From an uncultured cyanobacterium (GTDB taxonomy: Bacteria; Cyanobacteriota; Cyanobacteriia; PCC-6307; Cyanobiaceae): DNA of 64,000 bases. The stretch lies in contig CAVONQ010000011.1 in the NCBI GenBank assembly GCA_963697335.1, forward strand, positions 32,001 to 96,000. The letters run 5' to 3'. Positions 50,846 to 57,473 of the stretch are shown here, in pieces. The notes beneath the pieces were generated by a model. That model saw only the letters and a program-made list of their open reading frames with translations. It had not been told where the DNA came from and made no database searches. The position numbers and the translations under genes are program-made. Each line of letters opens with the position of its first letter. Within the stretch, counting starts at the first letter, position 1.

Positions 50846-52246
50846 TTGGCGCCTCGCAATGACTCGTTGGCTCGTCTGGAGCGTGCGCGCAAATCAGGCG
50901 ATCCCCTGCTGGTCGCCAGCACCTGCGAGGACCTGCTCCGCAATCCCCAAGCCAGAGCGCAGCACCTCAACAAGATTCGTCGTAACCATTTCAGTGCACT
51001 CTGCATCCTTGCTGATCCTGGTGCCGATGCCGCTCTGGCCGCTCTCCCCCTGCCAGAGAAGCAGGGGGCGGTGTTGGAGCGGCTCTGGCAAGCGGCCCTG
51101 CTTGCCGATAGCCGCGGCCGCTTCCGGGTGGCACGTGCCCTCTATCAGGCCATCGATGCCCTTTCCCCTGGCATGGAGTTGGTGCCGCACCGGCGTGAGG
51201 CCCTAGAGCGCAGCGAGCGGCTCGCCTATCTTCAGGGTGATCTTCGTGCAGCGGTTGCCACACGCAATCGCTTGCGTGAGTTGTTCCGAGCTGCTCCGAA
51301 GCAGGCGTGGCGCGCAAGGGCTGAGCCCTTGCGCGGGCTCCGGCTCGAGGTGAGTGCCGATCCAGAAGCTCTCGCGGCCCTGCAGAGCACCTATCAGGAG
51401 CTGCCAGACCCCCCACCCCAGCGGATCGCCCCACTGGTGCAGAGGTTTCCCGGCTCCAGCAGCGTGGCTTTCGCATTGGTCCAGGCACTGCGGAACAGCG
51501 GAGTCATCGGATCCTCTGCCCCATTCTTGCCAAGCCCGGCCGATGAAATTCCTAAACGGTTGTGGATGCTACGGCGACATCCCGGGCGAACGGATGCCTT
51601 GGAGAGGCGGGAAGCCTTTTGGCGCAAGCTTCACCCCCAATGGGAGCTGCAGTGGGTCGATCATGACCTGAACCAGGCGCAGCCTGACGCCGTGCTTCCC
51701 GAGCTGCCACAGCTTGTACGCACAGCCTGTGCCTGTGTCAACGACCCTGCCGTTCGCGGGGATCTGCTGCGGCTGGCTCTGCTCTGGCGTTATGGGGGTG
51801 TTGCTGTCGACTGGCGTACGCAACCGCTGCGTTCTCTGGCCCCCCTGGTAGACAGTGGAGTGGGTGGGGTCGTGAGCTTGGATGAGAACTCCTGCCTCTC
51901 GATCGACCTGGCTGCTGCCGTGCCGGGCCAGCCACTGATCCGTAGCATGCTCGAGCAGGCCTGCCACCTTGTGCTTCATGGACAAGGGTATGGCCGCTGG
52001 TTGCTGACGGGATCTTGCACGCTCAGCTTGTGTTTCTCTCGCTGGGCGGCTGAGGATGTCGCGACGACGGGCCTCCTGCCGGTTGGCTGGAAGGTTGTGC
52101 CAAGGCCTGAACTGCGGCGTTTCCTCTGCCTGGATCGGGGCCTGCCACGACCTCAGGGTGTGCCAGAGGATCAGCCTGTGCGGGTTTTATTCAACCATCG
52201 AGTGCGGCTAGGGGCATTACGTCGTTTAGCCGAGAAGCACTGTTAA
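50846..52246 (+). CDS. Helical N-domain fused to a GT32/Och1-like glycosyltransferase domain
   Basis: IPKRLW, W.KLHP.W, RGDLLRLALLWRYGGV.VD, A.PGQPLI, TG; start uncertain (TTG). Confidence 0.7.
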   Translation: MAPRNDSLARLERARKSGDPLLVASTCEDLLRNPQARAQHLNKIRRNHFSALCILADPGADAALAALPLPEKQGAVLERLWQAALLADSRGRFRVARALYQAIDALSPGMELVPHRREALERSERLAYLQGDLRAAVATRNRLRELFRAAPKQAWRARAEPLRGLRLEVSADPEALAALQSTYQELPDPPPQRIAPLVQRFPGSSSVAFALVQALRNSGVIGSSAPFLPSPADEIPKRLWMLRRHPGRTDALERREAFWRKLHPQWELQWVDHDLNQAQPDAVLPELPQLVRTACACVNDPAVRGDLLRLALLWRYGGVAVDWRTQPLRSLAPLVDSGVGGVVSLDENSCLSIDLAAAVPGQPLIRSMLEQACHLVLHGQGYGRWLLTGSCTLSLCFSRWAAEDVATTGLLPVGWKVVPRPELRRFLCLDRGLPRPQGVPEDQPVRVLFNHRVRLGALRRLAEKHC

Positions 52247-52307: not shown

Positions 52308-52757
52308 AACCTCGAGCGCTACCCCGCAACGACCGGTTAGGGCAATGCGATCGAGGGAAAAACGCACTGTTGCGCCAGGGCGCCGGCGCCCCCTCCTGGG
52401 TTACGGAACTGAGCTACGGCGTCGTCAGCAGGCCGCCTGCCGGCAGTGAGCACGGGTTTAGGCAAACGTAGCGCTTGATACGGCACCCCGAAGACGACGG
52501 GAGGACCGAGTGAACCCAACGTCAATCGATAATCGAACAGGGGCCGAAGCAGTGGAAGCCATGTGGGGAGAACCTCCTGTAGCCTCGCCGGGCGGGCACA
52601 TACCATAAACCCAAGCGACTGATCCCTTCCATCATGACTGCTGATGACTAATGCCCTCGACAGGCGAAGCCGTGCAACGGATATGTCAGGACTTCAAGAC
52701 CACGGCAGGTGACCACCGACTGCTTGCGGTATGCTTGCGGAAACTGACTTTGCTGTC

Positions 52758-55190
52758 ATGGCTGGCGTTGTAGCTACCCAAACCTTTGCCTACTCAAACG
52801 ACATCAGTTTTGATGCTGGCGACAACAACTACAAGCTCAAAAATGATTCCAGCCTGGGTACTTTCACCCTAGAAACGTTTAGCCCCACCCTTACTGTCGG
52901 TGCTCCAGTTCGCATCAACGGTGTTGACTACATCTACAAAGGCTTCTTCCAGCCTGAGATAGACAACCAAGGTGGTCAGACAGCCACTGTTCCCTTCTTC
53001 CAAGAGGTCAGCCAGCCTGACAATTTCATTGGTCTCCAAAGCGTCCGCAAGCTCGATGGTGACACCACTGACAACCTGACCCCCAGCACAGGCACTTTCA
53101 CCCCTGTTACGTCGTTCGCTGAAACCGATATCTTCGGTTATTTCAGTGAGAGCAATCTTGATGCCGGTACCGTTGAAATCAAGGACGGCAAAAATGACGG
53201 TGGACCCTTTGATATCGACGGAGGTTATACCGTTCAAGCAGGGGTAGATCCGCTGGTGGTGGGCAGCAAGGTGCTCATCAACAACATTCAATTTACCTAT
53301 ATCGGCAATGTTCCTGTTCCGGTTAACGACACCAGCGGCTTCTTCCAGCCACAACAGTTTGTTTCATCTCCAGCCTTCACGCAGGATGGTGAAAACAATG
53401 CCAATAAGCCATTTGTTCTCTTCGACTTCGAAAAAGTCGAAACGGCAGGCAATATTGATGAACAAACGCTTCTTATAGCCAACTTTGACCTAGCACCCGA
53501 TGCGTTTGTTTCCACTCAAACCTTTGGCTACGCTAATGAAGGTAAAATCGATGGTGGCGGTTTAGTCGATCTCGGCAATGACGGCAAAACCAACGTTGGT
53601 ATTTTTGGTACCGATGGCCCCTACACGCTCCAATCCACCAGCGCAACCCTTACCGCCGGTCAAGTTGTTTATATCAACAATGTAGCCTTCACCTACATTG
53701 GAACTGTCCAGCCGCAGATCAAGGATGGCGGTGGTGCCACCACCACCATCCCCACATTCCGGCAGCTGAGCGACCCGACAGTCATCCTTGGTCTTCAGGA
53801 CGTCGAGAAACTTGAAAGCGGTGACAATCAAACCCTCAATACGGGTACATTTAGCCCGATCAATAACTCCTCGCTTCTCGGTGAGCAGGTATTCCCCTAC
53901 CTGATTGCACTTAAAGATGAGGGCGGCGGCGACTATGAGCTGGATGCAGGCAAGACTTCAGATGGAGGCTTTGAAAGTCCCTTCACGATCAAAGCCACTG
54001 ACGGCACCTTAACGCTCAATGAGCAGGTGCTCATCAATGGCCAAGCTTATACTTATCTGGGTCAACTCACTGCAACGGTCGAAGAAACTGGTGCAACGTT
54101 CCAAGTCCCTGCGTTCCGCAGGGTGGGTGAGCCTGGCAAGATCTACGCACTTTCAAATATCGAAGGTGTTGATAAGCTGGTTGAGCCCATCAGCACGACT
54201 GCTTTCACGATCGGTGATCCAGCCTCGGCCAGCATGGGGTCCTATGCTTTCTACAATGAAGTGAAAGATAACGAGGATGGAACTTACGACATTGACAAAG
54301 ATGGTAAGCAAAGTGCCAATGTGAATGCTCCGGCTGGTGCCTTCCCCTACAAGATCGATGGCTTCACGGCAGCGACAGCTGTCGGCGAGAAGGTGCTAAT
54401 CAACGAGCGTGAGTTCATCTACCTCGGCACTATTGAAGTGGCGGCTGCTGAAGGCGGTGGCACCTTTGATATGCCCATCTTCCAGGAAGTTGGCGATAGC
54501 ACCACCATCCTCGGATTCCAGAATGTTCTCAAACTTGATGATTCTGACGCCAACATCAAGGATCGCACTTTAGACCTAGATGATTACACCCCCTGCTTCA
54601 TGGCTGGGGCCATGGTCGCAACCCCGAATGGACCTGTCGCCATCGAAGATCTCAAGGTTGGTGATCTTGTCTCCACCCCTGAAGGTCCTCGGGCGGTGAA
54701 GTTTGTGGGACGTACCACCCGTCACATCCATACGCTCATGGCCCTTGGCCGTATGCCGGTCACGATTGAAGCTGGTGCCTTCGGCAACAACCTTCCTTCA
54801 GCTCCCCTGCGCTGCACCCCCAGCCATGCGTTTGCCCTGTCTGGCTTGCTGATCGAAACCCAAGCCATGATCAATGGCACTACGATCAGTCAATCCAGCC
54901 ATTGGCCAGAGGCTCTTGTCACGTACTATTCCCTTGAATTAGACAGCCACAGCCTCGTGTGGGTCAATGATGCCCTCACCGAAACCTATTATCCCAACGT
55001 GCGTGGTGCCGGCTTCACCCGTGAGCTCTGGAACAACTATGAGGATTACCTCAGCCTTTACGTCAATGAGCAGCCCTTGGCTGAGCTCGAGATGGTTCGA
55101 GTTCCGTTCAGCCGTCAACTTCCTGCCGACGTGCGTGCTGCTCTGGGGATCCCATCCACAGAAACACCTAGCCTTAGCCTCGTTGACTAA
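52758..55190 (+). CDS. Large repeat protein with a C-terminal Hint (Hedgehog/intein, Hint_2/BIL-type) domain
   Basis: Five ~120-aa repeats, then P-CFMAGAMVATPNG..AIEDLKVGDLV (block A), TPSH (block B), TYY.LELD.H, TETY, and a ~65-aa tail; alternative ATG at 52731. Confidence 0.88.
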   Translation: MAGVVATQTFAYSNDISFDAGDNNYKLKNDSSLGTFTLETFSPTLTVGAPVRINGVDYIYKGFFQPEIDNQGGQTATVPFFQEVSQPDNFIGLQSVRKLDGDTTDNLTPSTGTFTPVTSFAETDIFGYFSESNLDAGTVEIKDGKNDGGPFDIDGGYTVQAGVDPLVVGSKVLINNIQFTYIGNVPVPVNDTSGFFQPQQFVSSPAFTQDGENNANKPFVLFDFEKVETAGNIDEQTLLIANFDLAPDAFVSTQTFGYANEGKIDGGGLVDLGNDGKTNVGIFGTDGPYTLQSTSATLTAGQVVYINNVAFTYIGTVQPQIKDGGGATTTIPTFRQLSDPTVILGLQDVEKLESGDNQTLNTGTFSPINNSSLLGEQVFPYLIALKDEGGGDYELDAGKTSDGGFESPFTIKATDGTLTLNEQVLINGQAYTYLGQLTATVEETGATFQVPAFRRVGEPGKIYALSNIEGVDKLVEPISTTAFTIGDPASASMGSYAFYNEVKDNEDGTYDIDKDGKQSANVNAPAGAFPYKIDGFTAATAVGEKVLINEREFIYLGTIEVAAAEGGGTFDMPIFQEVGDSTTILGFQNVLKLDDSDANIKDRTLDLDDYTPCFMAGAMVATPNGPVAIEDLKVGDLVSTPEGPRAVKFVGRTTRHIHTLMALGRMPVTIEAGAFGNNLPSAPLRCTPSHAFALSGLLIETQAMINGTTISQSSHWPEALVTYYSLELDSHSLVWVNDALTETYYPNVRGAGFTRELWNNYEDYLSLYVNEQPLAELEMVRVPFSRQLPADVRAALGIPSTETPSLSLVD
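52773..54593 (+). repeat. Five diverged tandem protein-level repeats (115-130 aa each)
   Basis: Cores LTVGAPVRINGVDYIYKG / LVVGSKVLINNIQFTYIG / LTAGQVVYINNVAFTYIG / LTLNEQVLINGQAYTYLG / TAVGEKVLINEREFIYLG, each followed by P.F. Confidence 0.85.
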
Positions 55191-55210: not shown

Positions 55211-55239
55211 AAGCCCGTACTTAGCGTACGGGCTTTTTT
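55211..55239 (+). terminator. Strong Rho-independent terminator of the Hint-protein gene
   Basis: aagcccgtac-ttagc-gtacgggctt perfect 10-bp stem followed by tttt. Confidence 0.92.
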
Positions 55240-55392
55240 ATTGCCCATGGCATCCTTTTCGCATGGCCGTATTCTGGGCCACCATGTCTTGGCTGGCTCC
55301 TTCTCGATCCAGCTGCTAATGCTCAAGACCCTCCGTCAGGGTGTGGCATCTTTTGGCGTCTACTGAGCTAGAATAATAGGTAGAAAACTATA

Positions 55393-56232
55393 GTGCTTGG
55401 CTGCGTGGGCAAGGTCGGTAAACAGGCTCGAGGATTCTCTGCGCCCCAGCCCAGACTCTCCAAACCCCTACGACGAAACTCAACCCCTCGTGCAGCAGCA
55501 TTGCATCGCCAGGCTCTGTCACTCATTGGCCAGAGCAAACTTGTTGAGGCAGAAAAGATTTATAGGGGTCTGATTTCTGATGGCACCATCCACCAGGATG
55601 GCTACTTCAATCTGGCGGCCATTTGCGGCACCACGGGCAGGTATGAGGAGGCCATGGCGCTACTGCGTCATACTCTGGAGCTGCAGCCAGATCTTGCCGA
55701 GGCTCACTACAACCTGGGCAAGGCGCTACAGGCCCAGGGTGACTCTACAGCGGCAATCACCTCCTACCGCGCGGCGATCAAGTTTAAGCCTGACTACTCA
55801 GAGGCTCATCATGCCCTCGGCACATTGATGTTAAGTCTTGGTCATTTGCTCACCGCGGTGACTAGCTTTACCAAGGCCCTTGAGCTTGCGCCATCAATGC
55901 TTGAGGCTCACGTGAATCTTGCTGCTGCCTATGCATCCCTTGGAGATCGAGAAGCAGCTCTGAGGAGCAATACCAACGCCCTAGGACTTAACCCGGATCT
56001 CAGCTACGTTTACATCAGTATGATCCAGCTTTATCTTCAAGATGGCGCCCAGGATGAAGCGCGATCTCTGGCTGTCAAGGCTTTAGGTAAATTTGGTGAC
56101 TCGCTCTCTTTCCTGTCTGAGATATCCGTTTTTGGTTCGGGCTTTGCAGCAGCCGTGTTTGGTTGTGCAGACTTATGCGGAGAGGGAAGCCCTGATCAGC
56201 CGAAGCTCGAAGAAAAGAGTCTGCTTCAGTGA
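55393..56232 (+). CDS. Tetratricopeptide repeat protein
   Basis: Consecutive TPRs (AEAHYNLGKALQAQG, SEAHHALG, EAHVNLA.AY..LG); no C-terminal catalytic domain evident. Confidence 0.88.
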   Translation: MLGCVGKVGKQARGFSAPQPRLSKPLRRNSTPRAAALHRQALSLIGQSKLVEAEKIYRGLISDGTIHQDGYFNLAAICGTTGRYEEAMALLRHTLELQPDLAEAHYNLGKALQAQGDSTAAITSYRAAIKFKPDYSEAHHALGTLMLSLGHLLTAVTSFTKALELAPSMLEAHVNLAAAYASLGDREAALRSNTNALGLNPDLSYVYISMIQLYLQDGAQDEARSLAVKALGKFGDSLSFLSEISVFGSGFAAAVFGCADLCGEGSPDQPKLEEKSLLQ

Positions 56233-57234
56233 AGATGCTGCGTAGCTCGTCTCGCTCTGCAACGTATTCACCAGCTTTTCGCGTGCCACTATGTTCATCG
56301 TCTGAACTTCATGGATTAACTGGGCACTCGCTTGCCGGCTTATCCCATGGCATTCCAAGGTGGATTGAAAGTATTCGCGGGGCAGTTTGCTGGAAATACT
56401 GCCAATCGGTAACGACTGAATCGTAAGGACATCTTCTTTCCTTGTTGCATTCTTCTGTTTGTCGCCAGCTTCGGCGCCACCCTGTTTGCCAACCGTATGC
56501 AAGATAATGCTCGAAGATGGAATCTTGCGTGTAAATGGAAACGAGTAACAGGCGACCTCCTTGCTGCAAAACCCATATGTTCTCCACTGAGCAAGTGGAC
56601 CCTTAAGCAAATTATAACGATGCAGAAACTCTTGTCCATGCATGAGGGATTCCTGTGTTTCCACCCCCTGTTCGGTGGTTCTGAAGCGTGAGGCGAAGCT
56701 GCTGTGGTTGATCAGGTCCCAGATAGGAGCTAGAACAGGGATGTTCTTATGCCTCACAGAACGCCTGGCTTTGTAGAATTGAAAAACCTCTGTCTCCGTC
56801 GGTTTTGTGTTCAGTGTGCGCTCATCAACGATTCCAAGCTTCATCAGCAATGACTTGGCATGCAATGGTAGCAGCCGTAACTCTTCATGAAAGCTGCTGA
56901 GTTCCTGCTGCCCAGATTGTTCGTAGAACAGAGCTTGATAGTAATCCTCAATGAATTGCCTGTGATCACGATTCGGCATGGCGTCCCCATTCACCTCAAC
57001 CTTGCCTGAGCCTGCCGTCACAGCAGCGCTTGGGCTGAGTAAGTTCATCGGGCACTTGACCATCGCTTCCGAGCTGCTTTCAACATAAAACAGGCCCCTG
57101 CCATGTGCTCCTTCGTCGAGCCTGAGATTCTCGATGGTGCCTCCCAGTGCTTTGAAGTCTTTGGCAAGATCTCTCCATTGATCGCGATAATCCGAGTCCA
57201 CCAATGCGCCCAAGCCTCCCCAAAATACTAGCAT
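56173..57234 (-). CDS. SET-domain protein (Rubisco-LSMT/SETD3-like signature), putative protein methyltransferase
   Basis: HGRGLF, P..LL, LAPIWDLINHS, GQEFLHRY, YGF motifs in SET order; start uncertain (57201/57234/57312). Confidence 0.65.
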   Translation of the reverse strand: MLVFWGGLGALVDSDYRDQWRDLAKDFKALGGTIENLRLDEGAHGRGLFYVESSSEAMVKCPMNLLSPSAAVTAGSGKVEVNGDAMPNRDHRQFIEDYYQALFYEQSGQQELSSFHEELRLLPLHAKSLLMKLGIVDERTLNTKPTETEVFQFYKARRSVRHKNIPVLAPIWDLINHSSFASRFRTTEQGVETQESLMHGQEFLHRYNLLKGPLAQWRTYGFCSKEVACYSFPFTRKIPSSSIILHTVGKQGGAEAGDKQKNATRKEDVLTIQSLPIGSISSKLPREYFQSTLECHGISRQASAQLIHEVQTMNIVAREKLVNTLQSETSYAASSLKQTLFFELRLIRASLSA

Positions 57235-57473
57235 GAAGTGTGTAATAGCAAAAGGCAAACCCTGCGCCGCTATGGTCTGTCCGAGGGGGCTGAATCTGAA
57301 GTACGCTCCCATCCCCTAAGGCCTTGGAGACAATCAGACCCATTTGCCTTGCCCTTATCTTTGGGAATGGCTCGAGAATCTGTCCTGCCGAAGCCAGCTC
57401 GGTGATGACAGACTTTCGCTGCAGTCTGGAGATGAGGCCTTGCCGGGATCCCCTCTCCCAATGCCCCAATCCC

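Follow-up and report, generated by a model that had tools for sequence, protein, structure and literature searches.

Type B bacterial intein-like domains (BILs) are described in the review passages devoted to them as sharing with inteins every splicing motif but the C-terminal one, as combining intein-like N-terminal cleavage with an atypical C-terminal reaction, and as being located in hypervariable regions of non-conserved bacterial proteins (PMC7765530). Corresponding passages elsewhere state that they show no similarity to block G and that their cleavage is uncoupled from splicing (PMC4031507), cleavage without splicing being also briefly mentioned in a third text (PMC5874633). In the same sources type A BILs are said to retain the C-terminal His-Asn and to be able to splice (PMC4031507), and the Hint domain of Hedgehog to transfer the N-terminal fragment to cholesterol (PMC5874633). 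The Hog domain is presented, in the part concerning its composition, as Hint plus a sterol- or adduct-recognition region (SRR/ARR, PMC2362128), and BIL2 of Tetrahymena, in the part concerning its reaction, as making isopeptide bonds to substrate lysines (PMC8616854). Here we analyze a gene with a C-terminal Hint_2 domain, found in 64,000 nucleotides of contig CAVONQ010000011.1 of an uncultured cyanobacterium (Cyanobiaceae, assembly GCA_963697335.1, positions 32,001 to 96,000); this whole stretch is called the window below. The gene encodes a protein of 819 residues, the last 198 of which form a module composed of the Hint core and a conserved tail. With a probability of roughly 0.6 this module performs N-terminal autoproteolysis, in which a thioester formed between Cys622 and Pro621 with assistance of Thr696 and His699 would be hydrolysed and a passenger of five repeats would be set free. 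The parts of the gene on which this reading is based are as follows.

52731..55190, plus strand: whole gene, coding for 819 residues, i.e. the 621-residue passenger and the 198-residue Hint_2-plus-tail module
52761..54593, plus strand: passenger, five tandem repeats of about 120 residues each (11-135, 137-259, 260-379, 380-503 and 504-621)
54594..54995, plus strand: Hint core with the HINT fold (module residues 1-134), supported by Pfam, the AlphaFold2 model and fold comparisons
54594..54596, plus strand: TGC codon of Cys622 (module Cys1), which would act as nucleophile; all 143 aligned modules have Cys here
54816..54827, plus strand: block B, Thr696-Pro-Ser-His699 (T75 and H78 of the module), letters ACCCCCAGCCAT; Ser or Thr in 143 of 143 and His in 143 of 143
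54936..54950, plus strand: block-F-like E-L-D-S-H with Glu736 and His740 (module E115 and H119)
54981..54989, plus strand: Glu751-Thr752-Tyr753 (module E130-T131-Y132), corresponding in position to His-Asn-(+1 nucleophile) of inteins
54996..55187, plus strand: tail (module residues 135-198), supported by alignment conservation and the AlphaFold2 model
55020..55136, plus strand: conserved core of the tail, Arg764-Arg802, including Asn769, Tyr777, Glu785, Arg790, Arg795, Gln796 and Pro798

The predicted scissile bond is Pro621-Cys622, and the last passenger repeat ends in this conserved Pro. Since the Hint Cys follows the Pro that closes each unit, cleavage would liberate five whole repeat units. 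In the assumed order of events the thiol of Cys622 would attack the carbonyl of Pro621 (N-to-S acyl shift) with the help of Thr696 and His699, the thioester would be resolved by water or a small thiol, and the 621-residue passenger would be separated from the 198-residue Hint-plus-tail fragment. Cleavage without splicing is expected because there is no His-Asn and no +1 nucleophile and because the domain is placed C-terminally. An earlier note on this DNA, made from the letters alone, had proposed exactly such a cleavage-competent, non-splicing chemistry, and our data agree with it: the invariant residues are kept, His-Asn and the +1 residue are absent, the domain is C-terminal, and this combination matches the descriptions of type B BILs in the review passages cited above. 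The landmarks named there, namely Pro/Cys1 at 54594, TPSH at 54816-54827 and TETY (residues 750-753, nucleotides 54978-54989), were all recovered in the translated open reading frame (ORF), with position 55190 closing the stop codon. If translation began at Met10 instead, an 810-residue form (P0002) would result. Script-based inspection found only two Cys in 819 residues, Cys622 and Cys695, and the absence of Cys upstream of the domain is true for all 621 residues preceding Cys622; at a Cys frequency of 1% the probability of such a Cys-free run is about 0.002.

Membership in Hint_2 is far beyond chance. The Pfam model PF13403 covers residues 621-755 with 103 bits against a cut-off of 28.4 (E = 2.5e-29, profile positions 1-145 of 147), and in the scan of its own genome the protein scored 106.4 bits. 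The last 204 residues, six of the passenger and 198 of the module, were modelled by AlphaFold2 using an alignment of 100 relatives, which gave for the module a mean predicted local distance difference test score (pLDDT) of 94.6 and a predicted template modelling score (pTM) of 0.89. According to this model the Hint_2 module adopts the HINT fold. Foldseek registered 18 chains at E ≤ 0.001, with Hint proteins throughout those listed. Comparison by VIA-align gave Z 12.7 for the A-type BIL of Clostridium thermocellum 2lwy (root-mean-square deviation (rmsd) 2.2 Å, 116 aligned residues), 12.3 for Tetrahymena BIL2 6y75, about 10-11.7 for many inteins and 9.4-9.6 for Hedgehog (1at0/6tyy); these matches span only model residues from about 4 to 140. 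By sequence 2lwy is the sole PDB match to the family profile, and only in block A (E = 7.2e-4). The end-points of VIA-align ranges place the termini of intein chains opposite model residue ~137, which is Thr752, and alignment of the family profile with the gp41-1 intein by HMMER puts the family motif E-L-E-x-H...A on intein block F. Glu751-Thr752(-Tyr753) can thus be regarded as standing for the intein His-Asn(-+1). The equivalence is approximate, one line of it being given by the limits of ranges and the other by a local alignment that is weak.

When the 198-residue module was searched by HMMER against the full set of 1.84 billion representative proteins, 13,939 clusters matched at E ≤ 0.001, of which 6,063 had E ≤ 1e-10. 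In 137 of the best 150 relatives the aligned stretch reaches query residue 180 or further (an insertion splits eight of the remaining 13), and in 135 of the 150 no more than 30 residues lie beyond the aligned module (median 14). Since the alignment extends that far and so few residues follow it, the tail belongs to the family module, and this module practically always occupies the extreme C-terminus. The architecture that had been taken as unusual is in fact standard for a family of about 14,000 representative clusters; the window domain represents no novel type of element and is quite ordinary within a family, large and already known, of bacterial intein-like domains that cut themselves. The Hint_2 cut-off is exceeded in all 59 representative relatives scanned and in all 16 proteins of related loci. 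Conservation was estimated in an alignment of 143 modules, composed of the window module and 142 relatives drawn from the best 150, from which five sequences not starting at Cys, the window's own P0002 and two with long C-terminal parts had been dropped. Besides Cys1, Ser/Thr75 and His78, Pro55 and Glu115 are present in 143 of 143 modules; Glu130 is found in 142, His119 and Thr/Ser131 in 141 each, and Phe or Tyr occupies position 132 in 139. All family-invariant polar residues (Cys1, Thr75-x-x-His78, Glu115, His119 and Glu130) are kept in the window module. A Pro at position -1 recurs in 15 of the 143, so that Pro/Cys is nothing unusual as a junction in this family.

The Hint_2 tail is a real, conserved and integral element of the module. 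The conserved extension beyond the Hint core is about 50-64 residues long and common to the family; in the window protein 64 residues (756-819) lie beyond the Pfam match, in accordance with the ~65 counted previously, and the letters R..W.NY..YL.LY...E...R....LP singled out in them coincide exactly with the family-conserved positions. Asn148 is kept in 142 of the 143 modules, Arg143 in 141, Arg174 in 137, Arg169 in 127, Leu155, Glu164, Pro168 and Pro177 in 126 each, Gln175 in 125, Tyr156 in 124 and Arg181 in 122, and the last ~17 residues are variable. The motif R-x-x-(F/W)-D-N-Y-x-E-Y-L-x-L-Y...E-L...P-R...R-Q-L-P was found in the paralogue from the same genome, in freshwater picocyanobacterial relatives and in plasmid proteins of Antarctobacter (Rhodobacterales), and in weaker form in proteins of Roseomonas and Gallionella; two Phyllobacterium proteins keep the first tail Arg and have an otherwise different extension. 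Structure prediction gave a confident model of the tail as a part of the module (block means 85-97), with short helices at 148-151 and 155-161, a strand at 174-176 and a helix at 184-189 (model numbering), presumably lying against the Hint core. Scans of Pfam-A and NCBIfam gave no model for the tail; no PDB chain matched it in two sequence searches, where similarity was confined to block A, and no PDB chain extends past model residue 163 in the fold comparison. Language-model look-up in the Atlas with the tail alone and Hint_2 clusters excluded returned sub-threshold leads only, all below 0.9: two unnamed clusters (0.89 and 0.88), Vint (0.84) and Hedgehog Hint (0.77), values below the usable level in a look-up in which one in three shuffled sequences attains 0.8. 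The literature searched yielded no account of the conserved tail or of the function of Hint_2 proteins.

Several observations weigh against autoproteolysis followed by hydrolysis. In canonical inteins Pro at position -1 is reported to slow cleavage. The window module departs from the ≥85% consensus at seven sites (T6A, I8V, D71P, A89T, L92M, A124V and P168V), and since these positions are changed its cleavage activity could be reduced. Conservation of many charged tail residues suggests a role beyond what plain hydrolysis needs. Finally, that Hint_2 domains are type B BILs is something we infer from matching descriptions and from taxonomy, relatives being common on Rhodobacterales plasmids; the primary studies of type B BILs (Amitai et al. 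2003; Dassa et al. 2004) reportedly used Rhodobacter proteins. This copy is probably active, with hydrolysis as the likely outcome; hydrolytic release is simpler as a reading than transfer to another molecule.

The passenger is acidic (isoelectric point (pI) 4.05; 86 Asp+Glu vs 32 Lys+Arg), contains 98 Ser+Thr and has no Cys, His or Trp. Its repeats are 23-43% identical to the first one. A one-repeat model is all-beta with pLDDT 70, and in a wide VIA search no chain reached Z ≥ 5 (the best had 4.6), hence a fold could not be assigned. Word-index search with residues 1-621 among proteins of 450-1434 residues returned the window's own protein alone, and the Atlas look-up of the passenger gave no usable match. 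A hidden Markov model (HMM) of the five repeats, applied to 150 proteins, recognized weakly the N-terminus of P0014 (E = 5.9e-6), a small member of the Hint_2 family, and marginally P0031 (0.027); among 18 locus proteins nothing was below E 0.07. Signal peptides were looked for by a crude measure, a 12-residue Kyte-Doolittle mean with a threshold of 2.0, and the top value within the first 35 residues of the window protein is 1.45, i.e. its N-terminus is not hydrophobic. By the same crude test, a signal-peptide-like N-terminus was seen in only two of 121 relatives, namely those beginning with Met whose passenger measures 40 residues or more. In this set the passenger is Cys-free in 104 proteins, and the median pI is 4.05 for passengers and 5.30 for modules. 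In the 59 and 16 proteins scanned with Pfam the passengers differ completely from one another and include VWD, Calx-beta, NIDO, RCC1 repeats, RHS repeats, four Hcp domains, DUF4082, DUF4347, PATR, cadherin-like, FG-GAP and Big domains, LTD and an Exo_endo_phos nuclease; many relatives have short N-termini of about 100 residues with no family assigned. The module is fused behind four Hcp domains (tube of the type VI secretion system) in P0042 and behind RHS repeats in P0024, which hints at contact-dependent secretion systems. The window protein is probably exported by a non-Sec route.

Conservation of the tail whatever the passenger (see the counts for Arg143, Asn148 and Arg174 above) brings in a second explanation, which we consider rather unlikely. 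As in Hedgehog, the thioester of Pro621 would be resolved by a particular nucleophile bound by the tail, for instance a hydroxyl of a sugar or lipid, or an amine, from the cell envelope, and the passenger would be covalently anchored or modified. It is in line with the confident placement of the tail within the modelled module, with the adhesin-like passengers of relatives (cadherin, Calx-beta, VWD, PATR, Big, FG-GAP), in which Pfam scans detected neither a beta-barrel nor any other domain for anchoring, and with the scarcity of signal-peptide-like N-termini (2 of 121). Glycosyltransferase genes flank the gene here and at three of 12 related loci, and there are two precedents, as given in the passages on Hedgehog and cholesterol (PMC5874633) and on Tetrahymena BIL2 and Lys amines (PMC8616854). 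The likeness to Hedgehog claimed by the earlier note stands for the architecture only; in sequence, PF01079 was not reported at E ≤ 0.1 with either the whole protein or the module, and no resemblance of the tail to the Hedgehog Hint/SRR model could be detected. The tail is, moreover, hydrophilic (maximum 12-residue Kyte-Doolittle mean 0.84), the review passages on type B BILs give cleavage only (PMC4031507, PMC7765530), and the neighbouring genes are heterogeneous. By analogy one can imagine the module in general as a bacterial cleave-and-attach device, whose tail, rich in Arg, Asn and Glu, would bind a molecule of the envelope (a glycan, a lipid head group or a peptidoglycan amine), resolve the thioester and tie signal-less, Cys-free and adhesin-like passengers covalently to the surface; this broader idea is more doubtful still.

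Comparably doubtful is a third explanation, in which the C-terminal Hint plus tail would serve as, or carry, a signal for non-Sec secretion or sorting that removes itself by cleavage after export, and the tail would be conserved for recognition by the export machinery, not for chemistry. Substrates of type I secretion, which carry C-terminal signals, are typically acidic, Cys-free and devoid of signal peptides. The module is indeed essentially always at the extreme C-terminus, its passengers are acidic (median pI 4.05), Cys-free in 104 and signal-peptide-like in two of 121 cases, an RTX/Calx-beta protein adjoins the related gene in the Cyanobium-type genome L013, and the Hcp (P0042) and RHS (P0024) fusions point in the same direction. 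However, no ABC/HlyD/TolC-type genes of type I secretion were found beside the gene in the window or at 12 related loci; type I signals are usually poorly conserved, whereas the tail is highly conserved and predicted to fold within the module; and a Hint domain active in the cytoplasm would remove its own signal before export.

That the window copy is degenerate, with the domain kept as a structural C-terminal cap and cleavage lost, appears quite improbable. It would explain the seven changes at highly conserved sites, among them D71P, immediately ahead of block B, and the tail change P168V, the more so as the paralogue on contig 14 of the same genome retains T6, D71, A89, A124 and P168 (read by eye). 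Nevertheless, the invariant polar residues are all retained, the AlphaFold2 model is confident, and the intact reading frame is followed by a putative terminator.

55211..55241, plus strand: terminator-like hairpin of 10 pairs (6 G-C) followed by a T run, starting 21 nucleotides past the last base of the stop codon

A true intein, i.e. a protein-splicing element, which the HINT fold, Cys1 and TxxH would suit, can be rejected as next to impossible, because Glu-Thr-Tyr stands instead of the terminal Asn and the +1 Cys/Ser/Thr, the module is terminal on unrelated proteins, with nothing but the tail beyond the domain, rather than inserted in a conserved host protein, and no homing endonuclease was found.

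The G+C content of the Hint gene is 51.8% against 68.6% for the window. The gene lies in a low-GC stretch at about 49.3-58.7 kb (0.49-0.60 G+C, flanks about 0.72), between pntB on one side and an alpha/beta hydrolase gene, followed by dxr, on the other. Other genes of this stretch encode a protein whose GT2-type similarity is weak and stays under the Pfam cut-off, an NKWYS capsular-polysaccharide protein, a glycosyltransferase with TPR and DXD, a TPR protein, an orphan 379-residue ORF and a GT47-like protein, and the whole segment 49300-58700 looks like a horizontally acquired cell-surface island. The 379-residue ORF (56173-57312, minus strand) has no Pfam or NCBIfam match, and its 3' end overlaps by 60 nucleotides the 3' end of the TPR gene (55393-56232). 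The upstream neighbour of the Hint gene is the following.

50846..52246, plus strand: TPR + DXD glycosyltransferase (Gly_transf_sug, Pfam)

Its homologue, 31% identical over 276 residues (E = 2e-23), adjoins the Hint_2 gene in L013 (2807-4957, minus strand), and association of this glycosyltransferase with the Hint_2 gene is possible. Judging from the composition of the passenger, the enzyme could act as a protein glycosyltransferase on its 98 Ser+Thr. Among 12 related loci there was no conserved neighbour and flanking genes were heterogeneous, a glycosyltransferase being present within the scanned 6-kb flank in three of them.

The genome of 2.58 Mb contains a second Hint_2 gene, the contig 14 paralogue mentioned above, which codes for a DUF4082-Hint_2-tail protein of 419 residues (L002:1273-2532, minus strand). 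The closest relatives, 44-48% identical over the module, come from genomes of Cyanobium, Synechococcus and Prochlorococcaceae, where they are often multicopy and have lower G+C than their surroundings. A full-length Hint_2 match was found in only three of 301 sampled genomes of the phylum, this one included, and in one of 14 other genomes of the same family. Plasmid matches are nearly all alphaproteobacterial (Sinorhizobium 43, Acetobacter 40, Paracoccus 33, Phaeobacter 16, and others), and in 61 of 210 matching plasmid records at least 80% of the module is covered. On plasmids of Phyllobacterium and Antarctobacter Hint genes form tandem pairs (L021:2407-4955 and L022:2626-5198), and on the Antarctobacter plasmid genes of IS6 transposase are situated 0.9-2.6 kb upstream of the pair. 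Two contigs labelled Chitinophaga pinensis (L004 and L005) carry Hint_2 genes that, together with their neighbours (PP-loop, DUF561, UvrB, IGPD, secretin and PilN), mirror those of a Prochlorococcaceae metagenome-assembled genome (L007 and L009); the label of this bin is probably wrong.

For annotation the window gene can be described as coding for a self-processing surface or secreted protein with Hint_2 (B-type BIL-like) on a low-GC glycan island. Three family-wide features call for explanation: the conserved C-terminal extension, which lacks a Pfam or NCBIfam model and a match among the PDB chains compared, the strict C-terminal position, and the acidic, Cys-free passengers without signal peptides. 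If the tail controls resolution of the thioester or exit of the protein, it would represent a new route of protein sorting or anchoring and, possibly, a compact self-cleaving or self-ligating tag. Should the cleave-and-attach idea be true, the module would be a prokaryotic counterpart of Hedgehog cholesteroylation spread across about 14,000 protein clusters and working without a sortase, an exosortase or the C-terminal-domain system of type IX secretion.

In comparison with known systems, class 1 inteins share with the window domain the HINT fold, Cys1 and the block B His; unlike it, they have the terminal Asn, the +1 nucleophile, a conserved host gene and an endonuclease, whereas the window domain is terminal and not inserted. 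The family Vint, eukaryotic or viral and following VWA domains, gave a weak Pfam match to the first 59 positions (PF14623, 20.3 bits, below the cut-off of 27) and, with 8r2c, the longest structural alignment (131 residues, Z 10.2, rmsd 3.5); since it reaches model residue 163, it may cover the first helices of the tail. The best structural matches are the A-type BIL 2lwy and BIL2 of Tetrahymena BUBL1 (6y75/6tmm), which have no counterpart of the tail, and A-type BILs have His-Asn where the window domain has Glu-Thr. Hedgehog/Hog proteins show the same order of parts as the window protein, i.e. a passenger, a C-terminal Hint with Cys1 and TxxH and an extension of about 60 residues, and they do not splice. 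However, they are eukaryotic and have a signal peptide, while the window protein is bacterial with none seen by the crude hydropathy test, and their extension binds lipids, whereas the window tail is hydrophilic, rich in Arg, Glu and Asn and gives no PF01079 match. In type B BILs the extension of about 50 residues beyond the Pfam model, seen in the window family, goes unmentioned in the review passages. They have in common with the window domain the N-terminal Cys, the TxxH of block B, the block-F-like motif and the lack of the block G His-Asn; in the same passages they occur in bacterial proteins that are variable and of secreted type, and relatives of the window domain are abundant in Alphaproteobacteria. 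What distinguishes the window copy from them is its host, a picocyanobacterium, where the family is rare, and its orphan passenger of five repeats.

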